Numbered from the stretch's first letter, positions 1 through 50,689 are shown. The stretch is DNA of 63,458 nt from Candidatus Staskawiczbacteria bacterium (GCA_026395215.1 JAPLZC010000012.1:1-63458); one strand, 5' to 3'. Numbers and translations: made by a program. The notes: generated by a model from the letters alone, not told the origin.

Positions 1-3000
1 GATAGTCTCATCACTAGTGAAAGACAAAGTAACCTGGTTACCAACTTTGGCTTTGGTTGTAACTGAGTTGTCAGAGACAATAGAGACAGAAGAAAGTGTC
101 GGCGCAGTCCCAATACCTCCACTTCCTGTTGGATATTTGACAATTACAACTCCCGAACCTCCATTACCACCCTCTGCTGAAGCTCCGCCACCACCTCCAC
201 CACCACCGCCAAGTCCATCTGTTCCATTTACACCTGGTACGCCTGTACCTGAACCACCGCCACCTCCACCACCAGCACCACCATCTCCATACCCACCATT
301 CCAATTTCCTCCTCCACCACCACCAGCATATACAACACTACTTCCACTAATTGTATAAGTTCCACCATCGCCCCCATTATGAGCACCTCCCTGAGCTCCA
401 AGGCCACCTCCATATGTTCCTCCTGAAACTTGAGCCCCTCCACTACTATTTCCACCATTGCCTCCTAAAGCAACAATTGAACCAAAAGAAGAATTACCCC
501 CAACACCTCCCCAACCACCCGTACCACCAGCACCGACTATAACATCTATACTTCCACTGGCAGAATAAGAAGCATCATAATTCAAACTGCCTGCGCCTCC
601 TCCACCAGAGTTACCTCCACCGCCACCTCCACCAGCAACAACCAAAGCAGTAACACTACAGCTTTTAGCTGGAGCAAAGGTTCCGGCTCCGGTGAATGTG
701 TGTACGGTATAACCACCGTCATATGGCGTATCTGGACGAGGATTTAAACCACTTGAGTCTGTATATGTAATTGTTCCACCTGTTGCAGAACAGCCACCGT
801 TTGTGCCTGAGTTTGGAGTGCCAACTATGTTGCCGATAGTGTCTTTGACATTGGCTTGGGTAACAGTAATATAGTTACCAGCAGTGGTAACACCGTCTCC
901 CATTGCCTCGCTAAAAGTGACATCAACAGTCAAACCTGTCTGCACTGTCACAGCCGTGACAGTTGGAGCGGTGACGTCTAAAATAAAGTTGCCCATGTTT
1001 GTCCAATCAGAGGTTACTGAGCCATCGTTATTTTGTGCACACCAATAATATGTACCGCTACTTCCAATTGAGTCAGACGGCGTCCATGTGGTGGCATAAT
1101 TAGTATTGGCATCAGGTGCAGAAACGGGATCAGAAGTTCCGCTTCCATTTGATGCAAGACTTGTTGGCGAAGCAAGAATACAATCATCGGCTGACAAAGT
1201 ATCAATTCTGTAATTTGTTGTAGCTCCAGTAGTTCCAGTATCTGGGTCTGAAAAGTTTGCAGACAAAGTTGGTGTGGTATCTGTGGTAACAGAAGCGTTA
1301 GCCGGCGAAACCAAAGTCGGCACATTTGGCGCAGCGTTTGCGCCCGGTGTCAAATACCTTACAATAACAATTCCAGAACCACCGTTTCCACCATTATAAG
1401 CACCACCAGCACCATTTCCTCCGCCTCCACCTCCTCCACCTAAACCATCTGTTCCATTATTTCCTACTGAACTTAGTTTTCCATCTCCACCGCCACCCGA
1501 ACCTCCTGTTCCGCCTGAACCTGATAAATAAATTCCTCCACCACCACCTCCTGCATAATAAACATCAGAGCCACTTATAGTATAATTTAATCCTGATCCA
1601 CCATTTCCACCTTTAGCAGTTTCTCCAATTGCACCTGCTGTTCCTGCACCACCTCCACCACCACCACCATAATTATCTGTATTAACACCATCTCCTCCGC
1701 TATTTCCTTGGTCTGTTGTTCCGCTAGAACCAAATTTACAATCAGGAGTACCTCCTCCAATACCCTTACCTCCACCACCAGAACCACCTGTTATTGCAGC
1801 ATATGTTACATTATTTCCACCACCTCCTCCACTTCCCCCAACTGCATCTAAAGTTCCAAATGAGGAATTGGTTCCATCTCCTCTTGTATCTTCCCCGGCC
1901 ACTCCTCCGGCACCAACGACAACATCTGTTGATCCACTTACAGCATAAGAACTATTGTAAATTAATCCGCCGGCACCTCCTCCACCACCTTCTAAAGAAC
2001 CTCCAGATCCTCCGCCAGCTACAACCAAAACCTTAACGGAAGTGACGCCGATTGGCGGAGTGAATGATGTAGTTCCAACTGTTGTGTATGTACAAACAGT
2101 ATATAGAGGATCGTCAGTTGCGGTGGTGCAAGCAGATTGCCCCTCCGACCCCGCCCCATTATTATAAAGTGTCAAAATATCATCCGCCGTCAAAGCCGTG
2201 TCATAAATACGGCCGTCGTCCATTGAACCCTTCCAGTGACCAGAAGACCAAGGGGATAAACCAATATATAATGGACTATCCCCATTTATAAGAGCAGAAA
2301 ATGAACCGGCAGAATTATCTGTAGTAGTGAGAAGATTTGTATTGTCATACATTTTAATTCCAGTACTAGAAGTGCTTCCATCCCAAGTTGCAACAACATG
2401 ATGCCAACCACCATCACAAGCTGCTACACCATTATTCCCTGTTAGTTGTCTTCGCCCAATATATGCATTATTAGTTTGATCATAAATAATTGTTTCAAAC
2501 ATATTATCCCCATCATTTAAGCAATCAAACGCAAAATAATATTCCCTATTAGTGTTATCAGATTTATATTTACCCATTATAACCGAATAACCATTGCCTG
2601 ACCCATCATCTGTATTTTTTACCCACGCAGACAAAGTAAAACCTGTTGCCGGTGTTAAGCTATCTGAATCTGGAACAGTTACATAATCACTCGTTCCGTT
2701 GAAGCTTAAGGCTTTGCCGATTTTGGCGGTGGCTAGAAGGTCTGTGTTTTGTTGAGCGGTTCCTGTGTGTCCACCAACGCTGTCTGCCACTGTTTTATTT
2801 GTTGAATCTTCATTCATCTTGTAATGAGCCGCGAGGCCTGTTCCCAAAGCCTCCACCTCACTTTCAGTTCCTGCCCCACTATTATATAGAGAAGCAATTA
2901 CACTTGTATCTGTTCCACCAGAAGTAATATCAGAATTATAAATACGAAAATCATCCATTGAACCCTTGAAATAAGTTGAATTAGGAGAAAAATCACCATG

Positions 3001-6000
3001 TTCTTCGTGTCCAATTATCCAACCCTTATTACTATCTAAAGGTGCTGGAAGTGAAGTTTCACCATACGTTGGACTTTGTGCAACACCATTGTAATATACA
3101 TGAGCCATTCCTGAATAATAAGCTACAGTCATGTGCGTCCAAGTATTTATAGAAGGAGGACTAAAATATACATAACCAAATGATCCACCATTACCCCTAT
3201 TTGTAGCAATCACAAGATAAGTGGGACCCATATATGCTTCTATATCGTCTACATTTCCAGATCCTCTTGTAAAAAGAGAATTATAATCTGACAAAAGGGT
3301 AGGATATACCCAAGTTGCCAAAGTAAAATTATTCGTGAAATCAAGAGCTTCATTTTGAGGTATTGAAACATAATCACTGGTGCCGTTGAAAGTTAGGGCA
3401 CTGGCGATTTTAGAGGTAGTTATAAGATTTGTATTTTGTTGGGCTGTGCCGGTATTTGAACCAATGCTATCTGTAACCGTAGCTGAAGAAGCGCTGTCAT
3501 CATTCATTGTGTAATGAGCCACCAGCCCACTCCCCAAATCCGTCGGAGTCAAATATCGAACAATCACAACTCCAGAACCACCATCTCCACCAGTAGATGA
3601 TGAACCATGATTTCCGCCACCCCCACCACCACCGCCAAGTCCATCTGTTCCATTTGTTCCATTTACTGAAGAATCATTTCCTCCATTTCCTCCGCCACCA
3701 TTTCCACCATTTCCAACCGAACCACTTCTACAACCTCCGCCACCACCACCTGCATAATAAACATCAGAACCACTTATAGTATAATTTAATCCTGCTCCAC
3801 CATTTCCTGCCTGACCTGCCGCACCATTCGCACCAATAGCTCCCGATCCACCACCGCCTCCCGCAAAATAATCTGAAGAGTATACTCCTGCTCCTCCCCC
3901 ATAACCCTGTGCACTTGTTCCACTTCCGCCCGCTCTTTCATATCCACCATTACCGCCTCCACCAGAACCACCATCTCCACCAGCAACATCACCCGAAGAC
4001 CCTCCTCCTCCACCAACAGCCACCAAACTTCCAAAAGAAGAATTTTCTCCATTATTTATTGTTGTACTATAGGTTGAGTTAGTTAACCCTGTTCCACCTG
4101 CTCCAACAACAACATCTGTTGCTCCACTTACAGCATAAGAACTATTGTAAATTAATCCACCCGCTCCTCCACCACCTGCTCCAGCACCTGCTGCTCCACC
4201 CCCTCCACCTCCAGCGACAACCAAAACCTTAACGGAAGTGACGCCGGTTGGCGGGGTGAATGATGTGGTTCCAACTGCTGTGTATGTACAAACAGTATAT
4301 AGAGGATCGTCTGGCGCGGTTGCACAAACCGGGTCTACAATGTAGTCAATTTCAATATTGCCGGAGAATAATAAGTCATAGACGGCGGAGTTAGTGTAAT
4401 TTGGATAAATCTTGTAAGTGTTTTCGCCGTTGATGGCGAATTCACCAATGATATCGTTACCATTTTCGTTAAAGACGGTAATGGTTCCTGTACCTTTGGC
4501 ATAGATGGTCATATCATTTCCGGCGGTTAGGTTGTGTTCAAAGGTTGCTCTTATATAGTGAGTGTCGGGGATGGTCACCCAAACATTGTCTTGGGTAACT
4601 GTTTGCTCATAAACATCATTAACAATTTCTTTGTTGGCATCTAACTCAAATGCTTTTGAAATAAAAATAATTTCAAAGGTTTGTTCAGACAAGTGTGGGA
4701 CTGTCCATTCTACGTAGTCCAGTTTGCCGTTACCGTTGGTGTCGTATGCGTGGAAGGCAACTTCTTTATTGTCTTCATTAGTCCACTTAATTTTGATTTT
4801 GTTTTCTTGGCCAACTTTGAATATTTCTGGGATTTTTGTAGAAGCCAAAACATCAACAATTGGAGCGTTTTCGTTTGAGGCGGTAATGCGGGCTGTGCCT
4901 TCGCCAACAGGAGTAACCAAACCTGTATTGTCTACTACGGCAACTGCGGTGTTGTTTGACGCCCAGTTGACTACTGTCTCCATTGGCTGATTGTTTTGGT
5001 CTAAAGTGTTAGCAACTAATTGCTGAGTGCTTCCGCCAGCAGTTAAATTGGCTGTTAACGGAGTAATATTTATTTTTGTGAGAACCGGTGAAATTATTGC
5101 CGAAGAAATATCAGCCGCTAAAAAATGGGTAAAAGAAGCAATAGCGCGCACAAAACCGGAGATAAGCGAAGCCGCCGCATCAATTGGAGATACTTCTTCA
5201 ACTGGCGCGGGAATTTCTATAGTTGGAGTTTCCTCCACCGGAACAGGTGTCTCTGCCGGAGTCTCTACTGGTGCTGGCGCGACTTCCGGTGCCGGCGTTT
5301 CTTCAGGTGTAGGTGTAACTTCTGGCGCCTCGGGTGTAACATCAGTCGGTGGGATGTCCGACGTCCCACCACTCTCTACCGGTGCCGATGTTTCAGCCGG
5401 TGCTGGCACAACCTCCCGCCCTTCGGGGGCGAGGCTCGCCCCTTCGGGGGCGGCTGGTGCTGTATATATAGAAGGAGAAACTGTAATAATTGCCGGGGCT
5501 GTGCTGGTGACTGCAGGTCCCGAGCCGGGTACTTCATCGGGAGCTGAAACAGTAACAATTTTTCCGGTGTCTGTTTCTTGCTCGGTAATAACTGGAGCAG
5601 GTGTTTCATAGGTAACTTGCACATATGTCTCTTCGACAACCGGAGTCTCTTCGACAACCGGAGTCTCTTCGACAACCGGAGTCTCTTCGACAACCGGAGT
5701 CTCTTCGACAACCGGAGTCTCTTCGACGACCTGTTCAATCAAACCTGCCTGCGCAGTCAGGTCTACAACGGTTTCATCGGGGGTTGACGCTACTATGTTT
5801 TCTACAGCGTCTCCAAGATCGGCAAGCAAAGAACCAAAACCGTCGCTAACGCTGGCAAGAAATGAATTATTCTTTTGTTTTGATGGGACAACTGCTTCGG
5901 CTAATTGCTGTCTTTGGTTAAAAGATAATTGTTCTGTTTTTTTTGTTTGCAAAACTTCCTTCGCCTGTTCTGCGGAAATTTTTATAATTTTAATGTTGCT

Positions 6001-12530: not shown

Positions 12531-15500
12531 TTATATTTCAAACTTTTCGTTAATAATCCCCTTCTTTGAGACGTCGATTGTCTGTGAAGTGTGGACTAAA
12601 GAATACGAGCCATCTTTGTTCTTCTTCTCTATCCTAACATAATATTTACCGGGTGGGACAAGGCAATAATACTTGCCGTACTTGTCGGCGGACTTGGCGG
12701 TAATTTGTATGTTAGAATCTGGTGACATTACACGCACTATGGCAAAGGACAACGGGATGCCTGTTGCTTTGTCTGTTATGTTGCCAAAAACTTTTGGTTT
12801 TAGTCCTATGATTCTTAATAATAAAAGGAATAAATATGCAAAAATGGTAATTGTGTTGTATGGGTATGGGGCAAAGATATATGCTAGGGTGGCGACAAAA
12901 AGACCTACGGCGAAGAAGAGATCGGAGAATTTTCTTGTAGCTACGTCCCACTTAGAATAGAACTTCATTATGTTCTTGTCTTTCTTGGCAAACTCATTCC
13001 AGTCAAACTTAATTGGATCTAAGGGAATGTTTTTGGTAATCACCTCGTCTTGAGCCTTTATCTCAATGTTCTCGCCAAAGTACAAGTCTTTGTGGAGTTC
13101 GTCGTGTGTTTTGCCGGCAAGATTCTTTGATGGGAAGGTGTAGTTGGTTTTGTGGGCTTCTATTTGGTAAATGCCAGGACCTACTAAGAATCCAAACCTG
13201 CCATCTACATCTGTTATTGCAGAAGAAATAACCTGACCTTTAAGATCTTTTAGAACAACGTAAGCGGGGTCTAGGGGACGCTTTGTGACAGAGTCGTAAA
13301 CAGCACCCCATGGGACAACTCTCTTTTTCAAACCAAAGGCAGTGAGCAGAAGTCCTAACAACCTTAATGGAATCAAGAACATTTCTGAGAATGAGAACGG
13401 GACGGAAAACCCTGTTGCCATGGCTGCCACTACAATTCCTGTGGTGGAGACAGCCTTAGTTATTACCGAACCTTGAGGTGAGTTGATTGCGTTCTCTAAA
13501 ACTTTTACAGCTTCTTCTACCGGGTTCACAACTGGCGGTACAACTGGCGGTACAACTGGCGGTACAACTGGCGGTACAACTGGCGGTACAACTGGCGGTA
13601 CAACTGGCGGTACAACTGGCGGTACAACTGGCGGTACAACTGGCGGTACAACTACAACTGGCGGTACAACTGGCGGTACAACTGGCGGTACAACTGGCGG
13701 TACAACTGGCGGTACAACTGGCGGTACAACTGGCGGTACAACTGGCGGCAAAGTTGGTTGTGCTAAAAATATTGCTGAAATGGTGTGACCGCTGGAAATA
13801 CTACTAAATGTGTAGGTAGTTATTGCTCCTTCTGAAACATTATCAACTAACACGTCTTCAATTTTATAACCACTATTTGGGGTAATAGTATATATTTGGC
13901 TACTTCCAGAAACCAAAGATATTAAACCACTCGGGCTAATAGAACCATTTGCTCCGGCTGAGGCAGTAATTGTGTAATAAGTATCGCCTCCACTACCGCT
14001 ACCGGTAATAATTCCGGCAATGTTGGCAGACATAGCGTAGGTTGTATTACCGGCTATATCAACTGCCCTGTAACAAACCTTTGAGCCGTTGTCTGAGCCG
14101 TCTGTAAATGTTTGGTCAGCATAAGTGGCAAATGTGAGTGTGCCATCACAGGTTGAGTTTGCAATGTTGCTCATTGTTAGAGTGCCTTCACTAGTTGAAG
14201 CTGTGATTGTTTTGCTTCTAGTCCAAGCGGTGTCTGGGTTGACTATGGTGATAGTTGGCGCGACTGTATCTATTGTTATACTGTCAGAATAAGTTTGGCT
14301 GATATTGCCGGCGGTGTCTTTAAATTGGACATAGAGAGTTTTGGCACCATCGGAACCAAAATTATAGGCATCTGGTGTGTTGACATATGACGCCCAAGCT
14401 ATTTTTATATCAGTACAATTTGCTCCAGCAATTGCAGAATTTCCACAAAGTTGATACTGACTAGCATCATCGGTCGTCAAAGTAATAGCAGGAGAAGTGG
14501 TTGTGCTATAAGTTGCTCCATCGGCTAAAGTGATGGTACCGGTAGGAGGGGTGGTATCAGGACTTGCGCTATTATCTGCAATATACCAAACAGGACTGAT
14601 GCCAGATAAATATGGATAGCCATTATTTAAATCGGTTTGTCCTCCGGATATATCCCAGTTAGCTCCGCCGTACGCGTTAAAAGTATAAAGTTTCTTCATC
14701 TCTGCTGTGGTCTTTCCCACAACTCCTGCTCCTCCCGCGCTTGTTGACTTACCGGAAGTTTGATTGTCCCAAAAAGAATTTGAAACAGTTGTTACACCAC
14801 CTGAAACTAATCCAATTAATCCCCCCTGATTAGAACCAGCTCCACTTACATTTCCAGTTGAATAAGAATTATTTATTATTCCATTTGCACCATTACCAAC
14901 TAATCCTCCACCACTTCCACTACTAACTATTACATTTCCAGTAGCATATGAATTAGATATTATTGTAGTTGTAGCTGACATACCAAAGTTACCAACCAAA
15001 CCTCCTACCATCGTAGTACTATTTACAATTCCAGTAGCATAAGAATTAGATACTGCTCCATAACCATATCCAACCAAACCGCCTACACCTTGAGTCGTAC
15101 CAGTTACATTTTTTGTAGAATATGAATTACTGATTGTACCACCAACTTGATATCCCACTAATCCTCCTAAAGCAACACCTCCTGTTGCAATCCCTGTCGA
15201 ATAACAGTTATCTATCACTCCTGCATCTTGTTCTCCAACTAAACCTCCTTTCCCAAGACTACCTCCTCCAATAAGATTTCCAGTTGCATAAGAGTTAGAG
15301 ATTGTACCACTAACTTGATATCCCACTAATCCTCCAACCTTGCCGTTGCCATTTACGTCTCCAGTTATATAAGCGTTTGTAATTGTTCCAGCATTTTGCT
15401 GTCCAACCAAACCACCCACACGACTAGAACCAGTTACACTAATATTAATTAATCCAACATTAGAAATTGTCCCAGACAAAATGGCGAATAAACCAACGTT

Positions 15501-17390: not shown

Positions 17391-18671
17391 ATGGATAGAT
17401 TTAAGTTACTACCTAAATCAAAGCTCAACGAACTCCCCAAAACAAGCGGCGTTTATTGCTTTGCAGTCGGTGGGATGTCCGACATCCCACCGATTTATAT
17501 CGGCAAGGCCGTGAATATACAAAGCAGGGTTAAAAATCATTTCCAACAGCCTTCTTACCGAGATAATATATTTATAGACAAAGTTGAGAAAATTGGATAT
17601 TTTGAAACTGGCTCAGAAATTGAGGCTTTGCTTTTGGAAGCCAGCTTAATTAAAAAGCACCAACCAAGGTTTAATGTAGTCTGGAAGGACGATAAGAATT
17701 ATTTTTACGTGGCTATCGAGCAAGATAAAAACAAGATTCCGTATGTCTTTATTACACATAAGCCAAAAAAAATCCACCCGGTCATCCGACCGGGTGCCCC
17801 GTCGAATGACGGGGCAAAATCCCAGTATATCGGACCTTTTGTAGAAGGGACAGCTTTAAAAATGACCCTAAAGTTTTTAAGACGCGTATTCCCCTACTAC
17901 ACTTCTGCGAGGCATCCAAAGAGCAACTGCACCTGGTGCCATTTAGGACTTTGTCCCGGACCAAATCACGATTTGAAGGCGTACAAAAAAAATATAAAAA
18001 AACTAGTTTTAATTCTTCAAGGGAAAAGCAAAACTGTTTTAAATTCCCTGAAACGGGAGATGGCTACTTTTTCTGAACAAAACAAGTTTGAGGAGGCCGG
18101 CAAAGTACGCGATGAAATCGCCAGCTTACAACAAGTCATGTCCCACTCCAGCGTCATTACCCAAGCAAAGTCCGGTGGGGTGTCGGACATCCCACCACTC
18201 TCTGGCAGGGTTGAGTGTTATGATGTGTCTAACATACAGGGCAAACAAGCCACCGGTTCTATGATTGCTTTTACAGATGGAAAACCAGATAAGAGCCAAT
18301 ATAGAAAGTTTAAAATAAAAATGGAAAACACGCCCAATGACATAGCTATGTTAAAAGAAATTATAACCAGACGACTTAACCACGTTAAGTGGCCTTATCC
18401 GGAAGTTATGTTGATAGACGGTGGAAAAGCTCAGTTGAATGCGGCAATAGAAATTAAAAATTATTTTAAAAATTTAAAAATTAGAAATTTAAAAATTATC
18501 TCCATTGCCAAGGGCAGACAAGAATTATTTATTGAGGGGTGCAAGGAACCAATACCACTAAAAAATCTTCCACAAGAAACTTATAACCTGATAAAAAATT
18601 TAGATGACGAAGCTCACAGATTTGCCATAACTTACCATAAAAAATTGAGAAGAAAGGAATTGTTGCAATAG
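17391..18671 (+). CDS. uvrC: excinuclease ABC subunit UvrC, short form (no C-terminal HhH2)
   Basis: GIY-YIG (GVYCF...YIGKA.N...R), UVR motif (KFEEAGKVRDEIASLQ), RNase H-like endonuclease domain (YDVSNIQG...YRKFKIK...IDGGKAQL). Ends right after EAHRFAITYHKKLR. Confidence 0.93.
   Translation: MDRFKLLPKSKLNELPKTSGVYCFAVGGMSDIPPIYIGKAVNIQSRVKNHFQQPSYRDNIFIDKVEKIGYFETGSEIEALLLEASLIKKHQPRFNVVWKDDKNYFYVAIEQDKNKIPYVFITHKPKKIHPVIRPGAPSNDGAKSQYIGPFVEGTALKMTLKFLRRVFPYYTSARHPKSNCTWCHLGLCPGPNHDLKAYKKNIKKLVLILQGKSKTVLNSLKREMATFSEQNKFEEAGKVRDEIASLQQVMSHSSVITQAKSGGVSDIPPLSGRVECYDVSNIQGKQATGSMIAFTDGKPDKSQYRKFKIKMENTPNDIAMLKEIITRRLNHVKWPYPEVMLIDGGKAQLNAAIEIKNYFKNLKIRNLKIISIAKGRQELFIEGCKEPIPLKNLPQETYNLIKNLDDEAHRFAITYHKKLRRKELLQ
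17469..17491. repeat. 23-nt perfect palindrome, 'SDIPP' family, in frame in GIY-YIG domain
   Basis: GGTGGGATGTC-C-GACATCCCACC encodes GGMSDIPP. Confidence 0.9.
17777..17815. repeat. tandem pair of GC-rich stem-loops, 'PVIRPGA' family, in frame
   Basis: CCCGGTC-ATCC-GACCGGG followed by GCCCCGTC-GAAT-GACGGGGC encodes HPVIRPGAPSNDGA. Confidence 0.9.
18174..18196. repeat. 23-nt palindrome, 'SDIPP' family, in frame
   Basis: GGTGGGGTGTC-G-GACATCCCACC encodes GGVSDIPP. Flanks are shared with the copy at 5348. Confidence 0.9.
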
Positions 18672-21927: not shown

Positions 21928-22010
21928 GCGGACGTGGCGAAATGGCAGACGCATACGCTTCAGGTGCGTACGACCTCACGGTCATGAGGGTTCAACTCCC
22001 TCCGTCCGCA
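21928..22010 (+). tRNA. tRNA-Leu (anticodon CAG), class II
   Basis: Hand-folded: acceptor GCGGACG/CGTCCGC, anticodon stem TACGC/GCGTA with loop TTCAGGT, variable arm GACC-TCAC-GGTC, T arm GAGGG-TTCAACT-CCCTC, discriminator A. Confidence 0.9.
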
Positions 22011-22020
22011 CAAAGGGTTC

Positions 22021-22061
22021 GCCCAGTGATGAACACTGGGCGCCAGGTGTTAATCACCTGG
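22021..22061. repeat. tandem pair of GC-rich stem-loops inside a tRNA 3'-end remnant
   Basis: GCCCAGTG-ATGAA-CACTGGGC then CCAGGTG-TTAAT-CACCTGG. Flanks GGGTTC / CAACTCCCTCCCGCGGCA mimic the T arm + acceptor of the adjacent tRNA. Confidence 0.7.
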
Positions 22062-22146
22062 CAACTCCCTCCCGCGGCACACTTCGGTTTAGACCTCAGT
22101 GTAAACTTAAAATAAAAAAATTAATATAAAATATAATTAAAATAAA

Positions 22147-34136: not shown

Positions 34137-34710
34137 ACATCCGGAAGTGTACCTTAAGTCTATCTTGGTTGTCTATAAAATCTAGCAATCCAAACCGAAC
34201 ATATTTTTCAAGCTTAAACAATTTTATAAAGTCATCAATTTCTTTTTTACAATCATAAGGGTGTAGGAAAATGCTTTCCTGTAATTCATAAAATCCGCCC
34301 ATTTTAAGCCTATAATTTAAAGCATTCCTACCCTTTCTGCACTCATTTGGTATGTCAAAAGCCACCATCCGCCATTTACCGTCCCATTTTTCTTTCTTGT
34401 TAGCCAACCTCCTAAACCTATAATTAATCGCCCGCAACCTCCCCTTCTCAGTCAATGAAACCAAAACAGAGCCTTCATAGCCCTTCTTTTTCCCTGCCTG
34501 CGCAGGCAGGTCAATTAATTTATACCTTTTAAGATCAACAACAGCCCTCCGTAATTGCTTGCCGGTAAAATTATGTATATCTTTTATAATGTCATTTATA
34601 ATAAAAAACCTCGCGTCACCATGCCCACCAATATGGGCGTGATCGGTCTGGTAATATATACTCCACAATATTTCATCCAAAATCTTATTCATACATTTAT
34701 TATACACCAT
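34135..34710 (-). CDS. wHTH + PaaX-middle/Cas2-fold domain protein (PaaX-like), paralog of 49986..50558
   Basis: WDGKWRMVAFDIPNECRKGRNALNYRLKMGGFYELQESIFLHPYD matches the PaaX/Cas2-like ferredoxin-fold pattern, with an N-terminal winged-helix-like segment. M7 may be the true start. Confidence 0.65.
   Translation of the reverse strand: MVYNKCMNKILDEILWSIYYQTDHAHIGGHGDARFFIINDIIKDIHNFTGKQLRRAVVDLKRYKLIDLPAQAGKKKGYEGSVLVSLTEKGRLRAINYRFRRLANKKEKWDGKWRMVAFDIPNECRKGRNALNYRLKMGGFYELQESIFLHPYDCKKEIDDFIKLFKLEKYVRFGLLDFIDNQDRLKVHFRM
34493..34510. repeat. 18-nt perfect GC-rich palindrome in frame
   Basis: CCTGCCTGC|GCAGGCAGG encodes LPAQAG. Confidence 0.75.
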
Positions 34711-34721
34711 TTTCTATTTAT

Positions 34722-34751
34722 AGTACGTTTTTTCGGCTCGAGCCAAAAAAC
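34722..34751. repeat. right inverted repeat of PaaX-like cassette 1
   Basis: AGTACGTTTTTTCGGCTCGAGCCAAAAAAC is nearly the reverse complement of 34101-34136. It lies 12 nt upstream of ATG 34710. Confidence 0.8.
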
Positions 34752-34771
34752 AACACATTCATTTTTTGCAC

Positions 34772-44348: not shown

Positions 44349-46980
<2,632 letters not shown>

Positions 46981-46981
<1 letters not shown>

Positions 46982-47622
46982 TATTGTACAATGTTAAGTG
47001 CCCTTCGCGAAACCGTTGATTGAATTGTCCTTATCGCAGTTTCTCCGGAAACTTGTACGTTTAGGAGTATAGTTACTGCGGGTTGAATGCCGTTTCCACT
47101 TGCGAAAGCCGGAGAGGCTGAATCTGCTGTTCTATTAACTAAAAATTTTAAAGACTTTACTTCAAAGTTAGTTGAAGAAGTAAGAGGGTTTCTAACACCA
47201 TTTTTTGTTTCAAATAAAACCCCTCCTTCTAAGAAAAAATACTGGCAAGTGGTAAGGTCATAATTATTATTCAAAAATTTTATTCCTGACGCAATATTTA
47301 TGCCGTCCCAGTTTGTGAGCAAATAAATATTGTTAGTCCCGGGACAGGTACCGGAAATATCTGTTTTTGCCGCTCTCAAAGCTTTAGCCATATATTCTTG
47401 CACATAGCTAATTTGGTTCAAAAATTGCTGTTCTGCCAAAACCCTTCTTTGGCCCTGAATAATGGAAATAAAAATCCCAAGGGCTGCCCCAATAATAAAC
47501 AAAAACACCGCCATAACCACAATCAGTTCTATTAAAGTAAACCCCGTTAGAGGTCCGCTTTTTTTGTAACCCGTCGAGATGCTTTTGACCTCTAACGGGG
47601 TAAATCCTTTGTTTAACTTCAT
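46981..47622 (-). CDS. type IV minor pilin (prepilin-type N-terminal cleavage/methylation domain; PilW-like) with insertion in leader
   Basis: ...TGFTLIELIVVMAVFLFIIG, with an upstream duplicated KGFT motif. Confidence 0.75.
47537..47604. mobile_element. MITE-like 58-nt element with 14-bp terminal inverted repeats and 5-nt direct repeat, inserted in frame in the prepilin leader
   Basis: ACCCCGTTAGAGGT (47541-47554) / ACCTCTAACGGGGT (47588-47601). GTAAA at 47537-47541 and 47600-47604. 58+5 = 63 nt = 21 codons. Confidence 0.7.
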
Positions 47623-48423: not shown

Positions 48424-49131
48424 TTATTGAACGTCTATAAGCCCGGATTTATTAATTAAAACTTTTCTGCTTGAGCCATCTGTATTCTTCAAAAAAACTT
48501 TAACTGCAGAAAGTGCCGTGTCACCCGAAGCTGTTATTGTTGTGGTAGGGTTTGGCGGATTAAAATTAACGCTAACATCGTCATATGAATGACTACCGTC
48601 ACTGCCGTCGGCATTAACGTCAATAATTTTTTCTAAGGATAAACTTGCGTTCTCTGCATTAACAGAAATTGTTTCCACAACACAATCTTTTGGGACCGGA
48701 ATAGTTATCCTTATACCGCAATTAGAGCTAGCTTGATAATAACTTGATTGACTACAAAGCACTCCACTGTTGTATCTTTTATCGCTAGTACCGTCCACAC
48801 CTGCTATGTCAGCATATATTAAATACGTTGTAGGCTGGGTGGTATCAACATAAACGCCATATCCCTTGACCGGTACTGGACAATTGTCGGCACCTAGCGT
48901 TTGGACTCCAGAAGTTCCCATGTCTTCGGCCTTTCTGAAATCTTGCGCCATACTATATGTTGCTCTTAAAAGTGCTGACTGCCTTTGAATTTTGGGAAAA
49001 TCAGCAATCATAATCCCGGAAAAAACAGCAATCATAAAAATTACAACAATAAGTTCAATTAAAGTTATGCCCTTCTGAAATTTTAAATTTTGAATATATT
49101 TAAATACCATTGAATTATTTGATTTCCCCAA
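48424..49131 (-). CDS. type IV minor pilin (FimT/GspH-like)
   Basis: QKGITLIELIVVIFMIAVFSG. The 5' end overlaps the pilD 3' end (the true start may be M8 at 49110). Confidence 0.7.
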   Translation of the reverse strand: MGKSNNSMVFKYIQNLKFQKGITLIELIVVIFMIAVFSGIMIADFPKIQRQSALLRATYSMAQDFRKAEDMGTSGVQTLGADNCPVPVKGYGVYVDTTQPTTYLIYADIAGVDGTSDKRYNSGVLCSQSSYYQASSNCGIRITIPVPKDCVVETISVNAENASLSLEKIIDVNADGSDGSHSYDDVSVNFNPPNPTTTITASGDTALSAVKVFLKNTDGSSRKVLINKSGLIDVQ

Positions 49132-49886
49132 AACATTGCCAAAAATGTTCCCATAATTAAAAATGGGCCAAAGGGTATTTCGCTTTTTAATCCTTTTTTC
49201 TGGAAGGCCATTAGTATTAATCCTATTATAGCACCAAAAAAGAATGCCAAAAATAGAGCCACAAAAATATTCGGCATACCCAGCAAAAACCCCATTAAAA
49301 TAGCCAACTTTACGTCCCCAAACCCCATAGCCTTTCCCCGCGATAACAAAAATATAGCTAAAAAGAACCCCGAAGCAATTACCGCCGCAATCAAGAATCC
49401 CGGTATGTCCCTAAAATTTTCGACTAACCTAAAAACAAAAGTAATTATAATTGCGGGAAATAAAACCTTGTCTGGTATAATATAGTGCTTTAAATCGTAC
49501 ACAAAAATTATAATCAAAGAGCTGGCGACATAAAACAGGAAAACGAGGTTTAAACCCCATACCCACCCGGTCATACGACCGGGCGCCCCCGCCAAAATGG
49601 GGGCGAAATTGTAAATTAGCAAAAAAATTAGGCCTGTCGCGAGTTCAACCACAGGATACTGTGCGCTAATTTTTTTGTGGCAGTACCTACATTTACCGCC
49701 CAAAAACACCCAGCTAAAAACCGGAAATAAATCCAACCAACTTAAGTTATGTTTGCAGTGTGGGCAAAAACTCCTTCCCTTCAAACTCTTCTCCTCTTCC
49801 AACCGATAAATAAAACAATTCAAAAAACTCCCAATACAAATCCCCAACACAAACACAAAAACCCCAATTAAATAATTAAAAATCAT
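49083..49886 (-). CDS. pilD: prepilin peptidase PilD (A24 family)
   Basis: Zn-binding CPHCKH...CRYCHKKI, polytopic, GFGDVKL and a second catalytic Asp region. Confidence 0.92.
   Translation of the reverse strand: MIFNYLIGVFVFVLGICIGSFLNCFIYRLEEEKSLKGRSFCPHCKHNLSWLDLFPVFSWVFLGGKCRYCHKKISAQYPVVELATGLIFLLIYNFAPILAGAPGRMTGWVWGLNLVFLFYVASSLIIIFVYDLKHYIIPDKVLFPAIIITFVFRLVENFRDIPGFLIAAVIASGFFLAIFLLSRGKAMGFGDVKLAILMGFLLGMPNIFVALFLAFFFGAIIGLILMAFQKKGLKSEIPFGPFLIMGTFLAMFWGNQIIQWYLNIFKI
49566..49605. repeat. tandem GC-rich stem-loops, 'PVIRPGA' family read in the opposite sense, in frame in pilD
   Basis: CCCGGTC-ATAC-GACCGGG then CGCCCCC-GCCAAAAT-GGGGGCG encodes APILAGAPGRMTGW. Confidence 0.85.
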
Positions 49887-49944
49887 TATCTTATTTTATC
49901 ATCTTTTAACATAATAAAAAACAACCTTTCAACCAAATAATAAA

Positions 49945-49982
49945 ATAGTCGCGTTTTTTGCTGGAGGCAAAAACATGACTAT
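49945..49982. repeat. 38-nt long-stem palindrome, left inverted repeat of PaaX-like cassette 2
   Basis: ATAGTCGCGTTTTTTGC-TGGAG-GCAAAAACATGACTAT. Confidence 0.85.
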
Positions 49983-49985
49983 TTA

Positions 49986-50558
49986 TCAATCAAGCTTAAA
50001 ATGCTTTTTAAGATAATCCCCATTATCTATAAACTCCAATAATGCGAAACGGACATACTTTTCCAGCTTAAACAAACTCACAAAATCCTTTATCTCCTTT
50101 TCACAGTCATAGGGGTATATAAATAAACTCTCTTGTAGCTCGTAAAACCCGGCCATACGCGCCCTATACCTTAAGGCGTTCCTTCCTTTTTTGCATTCGT
50201 CGGGTATGTCAAAAGCTACCATTCGCCACCTCCCGTCCCAAACTCCCTTCTTGTTATTCAGTCTCTTAAATCTGATATTAAGCGCCCTTAATTTACCCTT
50301 GTCGGTTAAAGAAATTATAATAGAACCATCATAGTTCTTTTTCTTTTCAATAAATTTATGCTTTTTCAATTCTGTTATACCATCTTTAAAATCTTTCCTG
50401 CCCGCTCTCGCCAAAGCTCTAATGCTTTTGCCCGATATACCAAATATTTTTTCAGCTCTATAAGAAAATCCAAACTCTACGCAATCAGCCAGATGCAGTA
50501 ATATTTTTTCCGACAATCTCTGTTCTCCCGCTTTGGGAAAGTGTTTTCCTGAATCCAT
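49986..50558 (-). CDS. wHTH + PaaX-middle/Cas2-fold domain protein (PaaX-like), embedded in the pilus cluster
   Basis: WDGRWRMVAFDIPDECKKGRNALRYRARMAGFYELQESLFIYPYD. The C-terminal half is close to 34135..34710. Confidence 0.65.
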   Translation of the reverse strand: MDSGKHFPKAGEQRLSEKILLHLADCVEFGFSYRAEKIFGISGKSIRALARAGRKDFKDGITELKKHKFIEKKKNYDGSIIISLTDKGKLRALNIRFKRLNNKKGVWDGRWRMVAFDIPDECKKGRNALRYRARMAGFYELQESLFIYPYDCEKEIKDFVSLFKLEKYVRFALLEFIDNGDYLKKHFKLD

Positions 50559-50594
50559 ACTTTTTAATTAAATTTATAAATTAATACACCCTTA

Positions 50595-50603
50595 ATTATA
50601 CCA
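50595..50603 (-). promoter_or_regulatory. extended -10 (TGGTATAAT) of PaaX-like gene 2
   Basis: Minus-strand TGGTATAAT ~37 nt upstream of ATG 50558, directly downstream of the 50621-50658 palindrome. Confidence 0.4.
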
Positions 50604-50620
50604 CCGCACTACAAATTAAA

Positions 50621-50658
50621 ATAGTCGCGTTTTTGCCTCCAGCAAAAAATGCGACTAT
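50621..50658. repeat. right inverted repeat of PaaX-like cassette 2
   Basis: ATAGTCGCGTTTTTGC-CTCCA-GCAAAAAATGCGACTAT is the reverse complement of 49945-49982 with 3 mismatches (the loop is inverted). Confidence 0.85.
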
Positions 50659-50689
50659 TAATTAATTACTTCTTTACTTACTGTTCTCT

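Follow-up and report, generated by a model that had tools for sequence, protein, structure and literature searches.

A minor type IV pilin gene in a 63,458-nt stretch of DNA from Candidatus Staskawiczbacteria bacterium (GCA_026395215.1 JAPLZC010000012.1:1-63458; the whole stretch is called the window here, and coordinates are counted from its first letter) carries its prepilin cleavage motif twice, once on each side of a short palindrome. The question raised by this locus is what the palindrome is, and what becomes of a pilin precursor that is interrupted at the very point where its leader should be cut off. The palindrome is an insertion; it belongs to a family of elements that duplicate 4 bp of target, that habitually keep the reading frame of the genes they enter, and that have used this same kind of site repeatedly. 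As a whole, we would explain it as a tiny non-autonomous palindromic transposon sitting at the cleavage point, with a leader that is removed together with the insert and an effect that is near neutral, an explanation to which we assign a probability of roughly 0.7.

The insertion in the pilin gene

The coding (minus) strand of the gene starts ATGAAGTTAAACAAAGGA-TTTA-CCCCGTTAGAGGTC-31 nt-GACCTCTAACGGGG-TTTA-CTTTAATAGAACTG, where everything from CCCCGTTAGAGGTC to GACCTCTAACGGGG is the element. Divided into codons, the same start reads ATG AAG TTA AAC AAA GGA TTT A|CCCCGTTAGAGGTC-AAAAGCATCTCGACGGGTTACAAAAAAAGCG-GACCTCTAACGGGG|TTTA|C TTT AAT AGA ACT G, and the translated N-terminus is MKLNKGFT-PLEVKSISTGYKKSGPLTGFT-LIELIVV. 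A protein search returned 120 homologs, the majority with PF07963, and their alignments mostly start near residue 26; the best NCBIfam matches, all weak, are to ComGE, ComGD and GspH-type minor pilins.

In the nearest orthologs (P0002, P0003 and P0005) the protein starts MKLNKGFTLIELIVV, with the short leader MKLNKGFTLIEL and no element. The first of these lies on contig L006, from GCA_964575665.1, which has in common with the window the gene order PaaX-like, PilD, three pilin-like genes, this pilin, a small protein, LigA and FtsW (identity 87% for LigA and 86% for FtsW). At the corresponding point the L006 DNA reads ATGAAATTAAATAAAGGGTTTACTTTAATAGAACTG, i.e., MKLNKGFTLIELIVV, which is the exact empty site, and the alignment of the two pilins shows a single gap of exactly 21 residues with identical flanks. 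A preliminary description of this locus, made from the window alone, had placed an insertion on the prepilin cleavage motif of a minor pilin and had pointed to the empty site in relatives as the relevant comparison; the syntenic contig bears it out on both counts.

The gene and the parts of its insert are as follows:

46981..47622, minus strand: minor type IV pilin gene, host of the insertion, 213 aa (open reading frame (ORF), homologs, synteny with L006)
47601..47604, minus strand: upstream copy of the target-site duplication, TTTA on the coding strand (empty site of L006; 4-bp duplication of the family)
47542..47600, minus strand: palindromic element, 59 nt (CCCCGTTAGAGGTC, 31 nt, GACCTCTAACGGGG), with termini that fit CCCCGTTAGAR...YTCTAACGGGG; absent from L006
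47587..47600, minus strand: 5' terminal inverted-repeat arm CCCCGTTAGAGGTC, encoding part of T-P-L-E-V (sequence, repeat search)
47556..47586, minus strand: A-rich 31-nt interior AAAAGCATCTCGACGGGTTACAAAAAAAGCG, without the two GC hairpins of the structured subfamily described below
47542..47555, minus strand: 3' terminal inverted-repeat arm GACCTCTAACGGGG, encoding P-L-T-G and source of Gly(-1) in the rebuilt site (sequence)
47538..47541, minus strand: downstream copy of the target-site duplication, TTTA (empty site of L006; 4-bp duplication of the family)

The boundaries 47542-47600 and the two TTTA copies follow from the duplication, which is exactly 4 bp across the family (see below). Element and duplication thus account for 59 + 4 = 63 nt, or 21 codons. 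The total, the 21 codons and the kept frame agree with the preliminary description, which had divided the 63 nt into 58 + 5. It had also located both 14-mers of the inverted repeat exactly (47541-47554 on the plus strand, 47588-47601 on the minus strand), but the spacer is 31 nt and not 33, and the perfect 14-bp repeat extends to 15 bp when an A/T pair from the duplication is counted. The flanking 5-nt TTTAC repeat that it took for the duplication does exist; judged by the family-wide statistics, however, the true duplication is TTTA, the fifth repeated base (C) being the first base of the element and also the base that follows the target.

The stem-loop of the window element has a predicted stability of -28.8 kcal/mol, compared with -15.5 ± 2.9 kcal/mol for 200 dinucleotide shuffles (z = -4.5), none of which was as stable. 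Its perfect stem, which begins at nucleotide 22-23 of the ORF, suggests an element that is either young or constrained. An intrinsic terminator or attenuator, made of the stem and the T-rich pilin codons, was considered and rejected: no terminator was called and the loop is 31 nt long. A described RNA family was likewise ruled out, since no Rfam 15 covariance model matched relevantly at E <= 1 in ten element-bearing loci. An integron attC-like site was discarded too, as the core-like heptamers are wrongly ordered and a target duplication is present (both judged by eye).

One alternative is that the long leader is ancestral to this family of minor pilins, some lineages having lost it, and that the palindrome is only incidental. 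The signature LTG|FT is indeed found at the end of the leader in 14 of 116 orthologs, and the window interior has TTACAAAAAAA and the following G-rich stretch in common with the elements in the leaders of the orthologous pilins of L004 and L251. The exact empty site in the syntenic relative and the absence of the element from all nearest orthologs already contradict such an ancestry. On a neighbour-joining tree of the mature parts the carriers are scattered, with at least 10 gains or losses, and the window pilin falls in the element-free clade P0002-P0005. Moreover, conservation of the termini extends to the DNA, synonymous positions included, among pilins that are 29-50% identical and in unrelated genes, and a 4-bp duplication flanks the element. 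The preliminary description had tied an ancestral leader to a lack of other copies and to relatives that are all long-leadered; instead, there are plenty of other copies, and the orthologs that carry one are dispersed. We consider this explanation very improbable. As for the interior shared with L004 and L251, it may reflect either one subfamily that hit this gene repeatedly or an old insertion that was precisely lost several times.

The element family, its target and its spread

Three of the more distant orthologs of the pilin, on L001-L003, show the layout of the window, with termini that are identical and interiors that differ. The distribution of the element was assessed by two scans. An unbiased one (one genome per species, pattern CCCCGTTAGAR-N(25-55)-YTCTAACGGGG, flanks left free) yielded at least 120 loci and, together with a metagenome scan for the filled-site pattern, brought the loci with these termini to more than 240 besides the window. 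Neither 14-mer of the window element recurs within the window, so that the further copies which the preliminary description proposed to look for are to be found elsewhere, where family members number in the hundreds. Among the matches listed, the hosts are about 31 Planctomycetota, about 27 Patescibacteria (candidate phyla radiation, CPR) and 11 Omnitrophota, with a few Desulfobacterota, Nitrospirota and Thermodesulfovibrionales and single metagenome-assembled genomes of Clostridia and Methanosarcinales; the last two could be binning errors. Other genomes hold 2-5 copies within 4-8 kb (L009, L123, L120). Only three viral contigs carry the family, and spread by phages was rejected on that ground.

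Members are 47-77 nt long, and only 10-13 bp at each terminus are conserved, the interior varying greatly in both length and sequence. The 4 bp before the element equal the 4 bp after it in 65 of 120 copies, compared with a mean of 8.7 and a maximum of 15 when the flanks are shuffled; duplications of 3, 5 or 6 bp were not supported in the same 120 copies. Seventeen different tetramers are duplicated (TTTA 15 times, TAAA 13, TCAA 7, TTGA 6, and others), the consensus being T-N-N-A, with G before and C after in about 43% of copies. This variety led us to reject an IS200/IS605-type insertion 3' of TTAC, which the flanks in the window had suggested; palindromic elements of that origin have a fixed tetranucleotide on one side only and leave no duplication. 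Given terminal repeats that are conserved and a duplicated 4-bp target whose sequence varies, the label MITE-like (MITEs are miniature inverted-repeat transposable elements), already used in the preliminary description, is appropriate.

The terminal repeat of the family is 13 bp long, complementarity having fallen to the chance level by position 14. Positions 1-10 were fixed by the search pattern, so covariation was read from positions 11, 12 and 13, where 235, 216 and 192 of 248 copies form Watson-Crick pairs (152, 149 and 114 expected). A structured subfamily (L036, L141, L126, L033, L055, L237, L003 and others) has a constant layout, namely outer stem, CCG...CGG hairpin, CA, G...C hairpin, TT and outer stem, which amounts to a three-way junction with a 13-bp outer stem and two short-loop hairpins of 6-9 bp. 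The hairpin sequences differ entirely from copy to copy, and unrelated sequences with the same fold point to selection on structure. When 15 copies were folded to a consensus, the outer stem and the second hairpin emerged along with compensatory changes, up to 9 of the 15 sequences being altered on both sides of a pair in the second hairpin; the first hairpin was not recovered by this procedure, whose alignment ignores structure. Taken together, the covariation at positions 11-13 and the fixed-layout subfamily suggest that a folded single strand matters for mobility. The window copy has lost the interior hairpins.

From the terminal inverted repeats and the fixed length of the duplication we infer a transposase that acts in trans and makes cuts staggered by 4 bp. 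The CCCC ends and the T..A duplication resemble those of cut-and-paste elements of the piggyBac/IS1380 type, a likeness that we take as a lead and not as a classification; no related transposase was found, no search aimed at one having been made. piggyBac duplicates TTAA specifically, whereas TTAA is rare in the present family (1 of 65 duplications). Excised precisely, the element would leave the pilin gene as it was before. REP/REPIN elements, which are extragenic GC-rich hairpins with an associated RAYT gene and no target duplication, were set aside because the present family does have a duplication and is intragenic in roughly half of its copies, no search for RAYT having been made.

Inside coding sequences, the family behaves in a characteristic way. 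In 89 of 120 copies (74%) the element and its duplication together have a length divisible by three, and of the 56 copies (out of 122) that lie inside open frames of at least 150 codons, 54 keep the frame. One of the palindrome's reading frames has stops (TAG, TAA), and the other two are stop-free, reading xPVR(N/D/S)...SNG(V/A) and TPLE...LTG. Genic hosts identified by eye include CarB, DnaE, SecA, UvrA and Mfd (on L121, L070, L057, L036 and L120); in CarB and UvrA, compared with solved structures, the copies correspond to clean gaps of 19 and 18 residues between strongly conserved blocks. Avoidance of stop codons in the frames that the host does not use showed a modest excess only, confounded by copies that had been selected through pilins. 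Genic copies are overwhelmingly in-frame and stop-free, which is needed only if they are translated, and an intron removed at the RNA level (bulge-helix-bulge or self-splicing) was rejected for this reason.

Prepilin junctions are a favoured location. In the unbiased set (829 kb), 4 (G/A)-F-T-x-x-E sites were filled and 18 empty, an occupancy of about 18%, whereas about 0.2% of the 12,708 TTTA/TAAA tetramers in the same DNA were occupied, that is, a difference of around a hundredfold. Targeting specific to pilins was nonetheless rejected, given that prepilin sites make up only 4 of the 122 copies of the unbiased scan (~3%) and the others have other flanks; the target is T-N-N-A within G|TNNA|C and not pilins as such. 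The hot spot probably arises from two factors combined: the codons GGN-TTT-ACN fit the target preference, and an insertion here is tolerated.

The metagenome scan returned at least 129 filled sites in pilin genes, of which, among the matches listed, 126 are in-frame and retain long intact ORFs. All conform to M...(K/R)(G/A)FT-PLE...(F/L/S/P)LTG-FT(L/I/M)(I/V)E. A usable mature part was available for 106 of the host pilins. At 60% identity these make 90 clusters, and they fall into 34 groups, from different phyla, between which similarity is undetectable outside the N-terminal helix; descent from one ancestor cannot explain the pattern. On L123 (1581-3695), five adjacent pilin genes are all filled at G|FT, and in one of these two copies of different subfamilies stand in tandem; a leader on L140 is also encoded with two tandem copies. 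Each insertion rebuilds G|TTTA|C and so leaves the site open to a further hit.

The element could be real and yet have spread among pilin 5' ends mainly by gene conversion or recombination instead of fresh transposition. Adjacent pilin genes do carry near-identical elements (L164, L215, L227, L241 and L123), and the N-terminal coding flanks are highly conserved. Yet the 34 groups of filled pilins have different interiors, the duplications vary in non-pilin copies, and the tandem copies on L123 come from different subfamilies, all of which makes this route highly unlikely as the main one.

Cleavage site and fate of the leader

According to the published rules for class III signal peptides, the leader is hydrophilic and 6-26 residues long (15-30 in type IVb), Gly at -1 is indispensable, about 21 residues that are for the most part hydrophobic come after it, cleavage takes place at the cytoplasmic face of the membrane, and Glu5 is dispensable for it (PMC4471445). 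The duplicated G|FT recognition site noted in the preliminary description is present in the translation as G6|F7-T8 (proximal) and G27|FT (distal):

47599..47607, minus strand: proximal G6|F7-T8 motif (original Gly-Phe-Thr codons), probably unused (hydrophilic element-encoded peptide after it, no hydrophobic tract)
47479..47544, minus strand: distal class III signal motif, residues 27-48 (G27|FTLIELIVVMAVFLFIIGAALG), predicted PilD cleavage and methylation site (PF07963, TIGR02532)
49083..49886, minus strand: prepilin peptidase PilD (PF06750, 4.6e-32; PF01478, 2.9e-18), at the same place in syntenic L006

On residues 27-48, PF07963 scores 20.1 bits, slightly below its 21.2-bit cut-off, and TIGR02532 scores 19.8 bits, over its 16.3-bit cut-off; neither gives a match at the proximal G6 of the window protein. 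With the 21 codons taken out in silico, TIGR02532 scores 27.4 bits instead of 19.8. The leader up to Gly27 is hydrophilic and carries a net positive charge, and G27|FTLIELIVVMAVFLFIIGAALG is the sole site that agrees with the published rules.

Some orthologs are informative about the distal site. On L251-L254, and probably on L004, the element keeps both ends but is longer (105-140 nt) and contains stops; it lies some 150 nt upstream of where each pilin starts. There, the original start encodes a mere stub, such as MKTQKGFTPLEVFDKNF followed by a stop in L252, and an ATG within the element serves as the new start of the intact pilin, with a leader MENKITNNKKDRLLTG|FTLIEL and the ending ...LLTG|FTLIEL. 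As the genes of L251-L254 are intact with the distal site alone, this site would be sufficient. On this basis, PilD is predicted to cut the window pilin most likely after Gly27. The idea of a silent insertion, put forward in the preliminary description, is indirectly supported by the distal-only model matches, by the filled pilins elsewhere and by L251-L254.

The course of events that we propose is the following. A 59-bp non-autonomous element entered G|TTTA|C, within the Gly-Phe-Thr codons of the minor pilin, and duplicated TTTA. With 63 nt added and a stop-free frame, the ORF was not interrupted and became 21 codons longer. At its 3' end the element reads ...CTA-ACG-GGG, which with the duplicated TTTA and the C after it rebuilds L-T-G|F-T before the untouched helix LIELIVV, so that the leader of the prepilin is hydrophilic and 27 residues long, where it had been 6. 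PilD, whose gene is 1.5 kb away, would then most likely cut after Gly27 at the membrane face; all element-encoded residues would leave with the leader, the mature pilin would be unchanged and the insertion would be close to neutral.

The insertion might instead be damaging, if PilD cut at G6|F7 or not at all and a hydrophilic extension of 21 residues blocked assembly, leaving a young pseudogene or a dominant-negative subunit. The proximal motif does retain Gly-1, Phe+1, Thr+2 and Glu+5, the perfect stem would suit a recent event that selection has yet to remove, and minor pilins are numerous at the locus, so one is perhaps dispensable. By the rules cited above (PMC4471445), however, the proximal Gly lacks the hydrophobic tract that should follow it, and there is no model match there; the intact ORFs of nearly all filled pilins elsewhere, and of the orthologs that have the distal site alone, also speak against damage. 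Even if the proximal site were cut too, a second cut at G27 would give a normal mature pilin all the same. We regard a damaging insertion as improbable.

A better case, though still an unlikely one, can be made for co-option, in which the hairpin or the long leader regulates the pilin (through translation, slower processing or a new start) and copies are kept for their usefulness. It would account for the roughly hundredfold excess at prepilin sites, for the long variants in L251-L254 that provide the start codon and the entire leader, for a stem in the window that is perfect and close to the start of the ORF, and for the covariation in the structured subfamily. But the interior varies widely in length and sequence, and the family occurs also in unrelated genes and intergenic DNA, with variable duplications. 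The nearest orthologs do without the element, neither a terminator call nor an Rfam match hints at regulation, and tolerance combined with the G|TTTA|C preference is enough for the excess.

Several observations nevertheless weigh against a near-neutral transposon at the cleavage point. Besides the near-identical elements in adjacent pilin genes, 55 of the 120 copies lack an exact 4-bp duplication, and the 63-kb window contains one copy only. A search for an autonomous parent (paired ends 150-6000 bp apart with matching duplications, plus unpaired ends) revealed no autonomous element or transposase with these ends in 1.56 Mb of loci, whole genomes not having been searched; every long end pair whose duplications matched proved to consist of short elements in neighbouring pilin genes, and the ends left without a partner could be put down to contig edges, to nested elements or to longer ones. 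The likeness of the window interior to those of some distant orthologs may leave room for an old insertion followed by precise losses. Proximal GFTPLE keeps Gly-1, Phe+1 and Glu+5, and some cleavage there may occur. The 14-15-bp perfect stem, 22 nt past the start codon, could lower or regulate translation, in which case "silent" may be too strong a word. Finally, the hosts of the family are all uncultivated.

For the family at large, we propose a picture that we hold to be somewhat better than an even bet: an undescribed, cross-phylum family of about 50-80 bp that would persist in gene-dense genomes by being translatable, that would have in the prepilin junction a self-renewing safe harbour, and that in some lineages would take over the start and the leader of the host gene. 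No prior description of the family or of its pilin-leader habit was found in the literature searched, whose coverage was incomplete, and its novelty is probable.

Window context and comparison with known systems

The window contains other repeats. Its DNA is 38.6% G+C and has 10 perfect GC-rich hairpins, compared with 0-1 in simulated sequence, nine of them inside long open frames. A twin GC-rich hairpin family (ACCCGGTC-loop-GACCGGGT and then GCCCCGTC-loop-GACGGGGC) is present at 17774-17820, 44573-44619 and 49563-49609; two of these copies are in-frame within LigA and PilD, and in L006 these places, or points close to them, carry other small GC-rich insertions. Short palindromic insertions that keep the frame are clearly tolerated in this lineage. 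Dispersed GC-rich hairpins of the GGTGGGATGTCCGACATCCCACC type occur at 5341-5370, 17469-17498 and ~18175-18197, and tRNA-Leu(CAG) (21928-22011) is directly followed by two more GC-rich hairpins, at 22020-22042 and ~22043-22062.

Longer repeats include a 43-nt sequence found in inverted orientation at 5414-5456 and 27669-27711, and two paralogous genes (~70% DNA identity) at 49944-50659 and 34094-34764, each between inverted repeats of 41-44 nt. The copy at 49986..50558 matches the PaaX_M domain and, as L006 likewise has a PaaX-like gene upstream of PilD, the arrangement may be a conserved regulatory layout rather than a mobile cassette. Tandem arrays, probably in coding sequence, are seen at 13467-13805 (12-nt unit ACAACTGGCGGT, about 28 times) and 5609-5749 (18-nt unit, about 7 times). 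Repetitive DNA rich in CCACCACC (plus strand; Gly-rich on minus), with large internal duplications, occupies 1-4300 and 14800-15400 and likely encodes big repetitive surface proteins.

If the proposed course of events is right, a transposon can reach near-zero cost by landing where the host removes a peptide and by rebuilding the removal signal. It would also explain the recurring '...GFTPLE...LTG|FTLIEL' leaders in pilin-like proteins of Planctomycetota, Omnitrophota and Patescibacteria, in many of which annotation pipelines miss the N_methyl motif (several have no Pfam call). The natural variants offer direct tests of how a prepilin peptidase chooses between two sites and of the leader length that is tolerated, and the conserved 13-bp ends, the covarying hairpins and the lack of a transposase in the loci searched are clues to how the element is mobilised.

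Among known systems, the closest in behavior are the Rickettsia palindromic elements (RPEs), palindromic repeats of ~150 bp found in-frame in unrelated genes, housekeeping genes included (Ogata et al. 2000, per PMC10969869). Both are palindromic, sit in-frame in unrelated genes, add a tolerated peptide and keep long ORFs. RPEs, however, occur in Rickettsia only and have a conserved peptide per family, whereas the present elements are two to three times shorter, inhabit several phyla and have an unconserved interior; they have no sequence in common with RPEs, show a clear 4-bp duplication and use a hot spot where a leader peptidase can remove the peptide. The element behaves like an RPE without being one, extending the Rickettsia picture of selfish DNA in coding genes to many uncultivated phyla.

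Prokaryotic MITEs (Correia/NEMIS, ERIC, Coxiella QMITE1, Anabaena) are small and multicopy, have no transposase gene, and sometimes form in-frame fusions inside genes (PMC10969869). The present family shares with them the small size, the lack of a transposase gene, the terminal inverted repeats and the target-site duplication. Typical MITEs measure ~100-400 bp, though, and the family described here is far shorter, about half intragenic and 74% frame-preserving, with a covarying three-way-junction subfamily. The very small dispersed repeats (SDRs) of cyanobacteria (Elhai et al. 2008) are reportedly palindromic and mobile as well, extremely short, and able to lie within genes and inside each other; they may be a further parallel, with sequences and hosts that differ.

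On the protein side, the leader (27 residues, hydrophilic, positively charged, with Gly last and an FTLIE helix after it) resembles those of type IVb/Flp long-leader prepilins, and its length is at the upper end of the published ranges of 6-26 and 15-30 aa (PMC4471445). It differs from these in being an insertion into a short, type IVa-like leader and in having a second, vestigial GFT motif. In kind, the element is most likely a variant of MITEs and RPE-like coding palindromes, and what would set it apart is that the peptide it adds is removed by the leader peptidase of the host.

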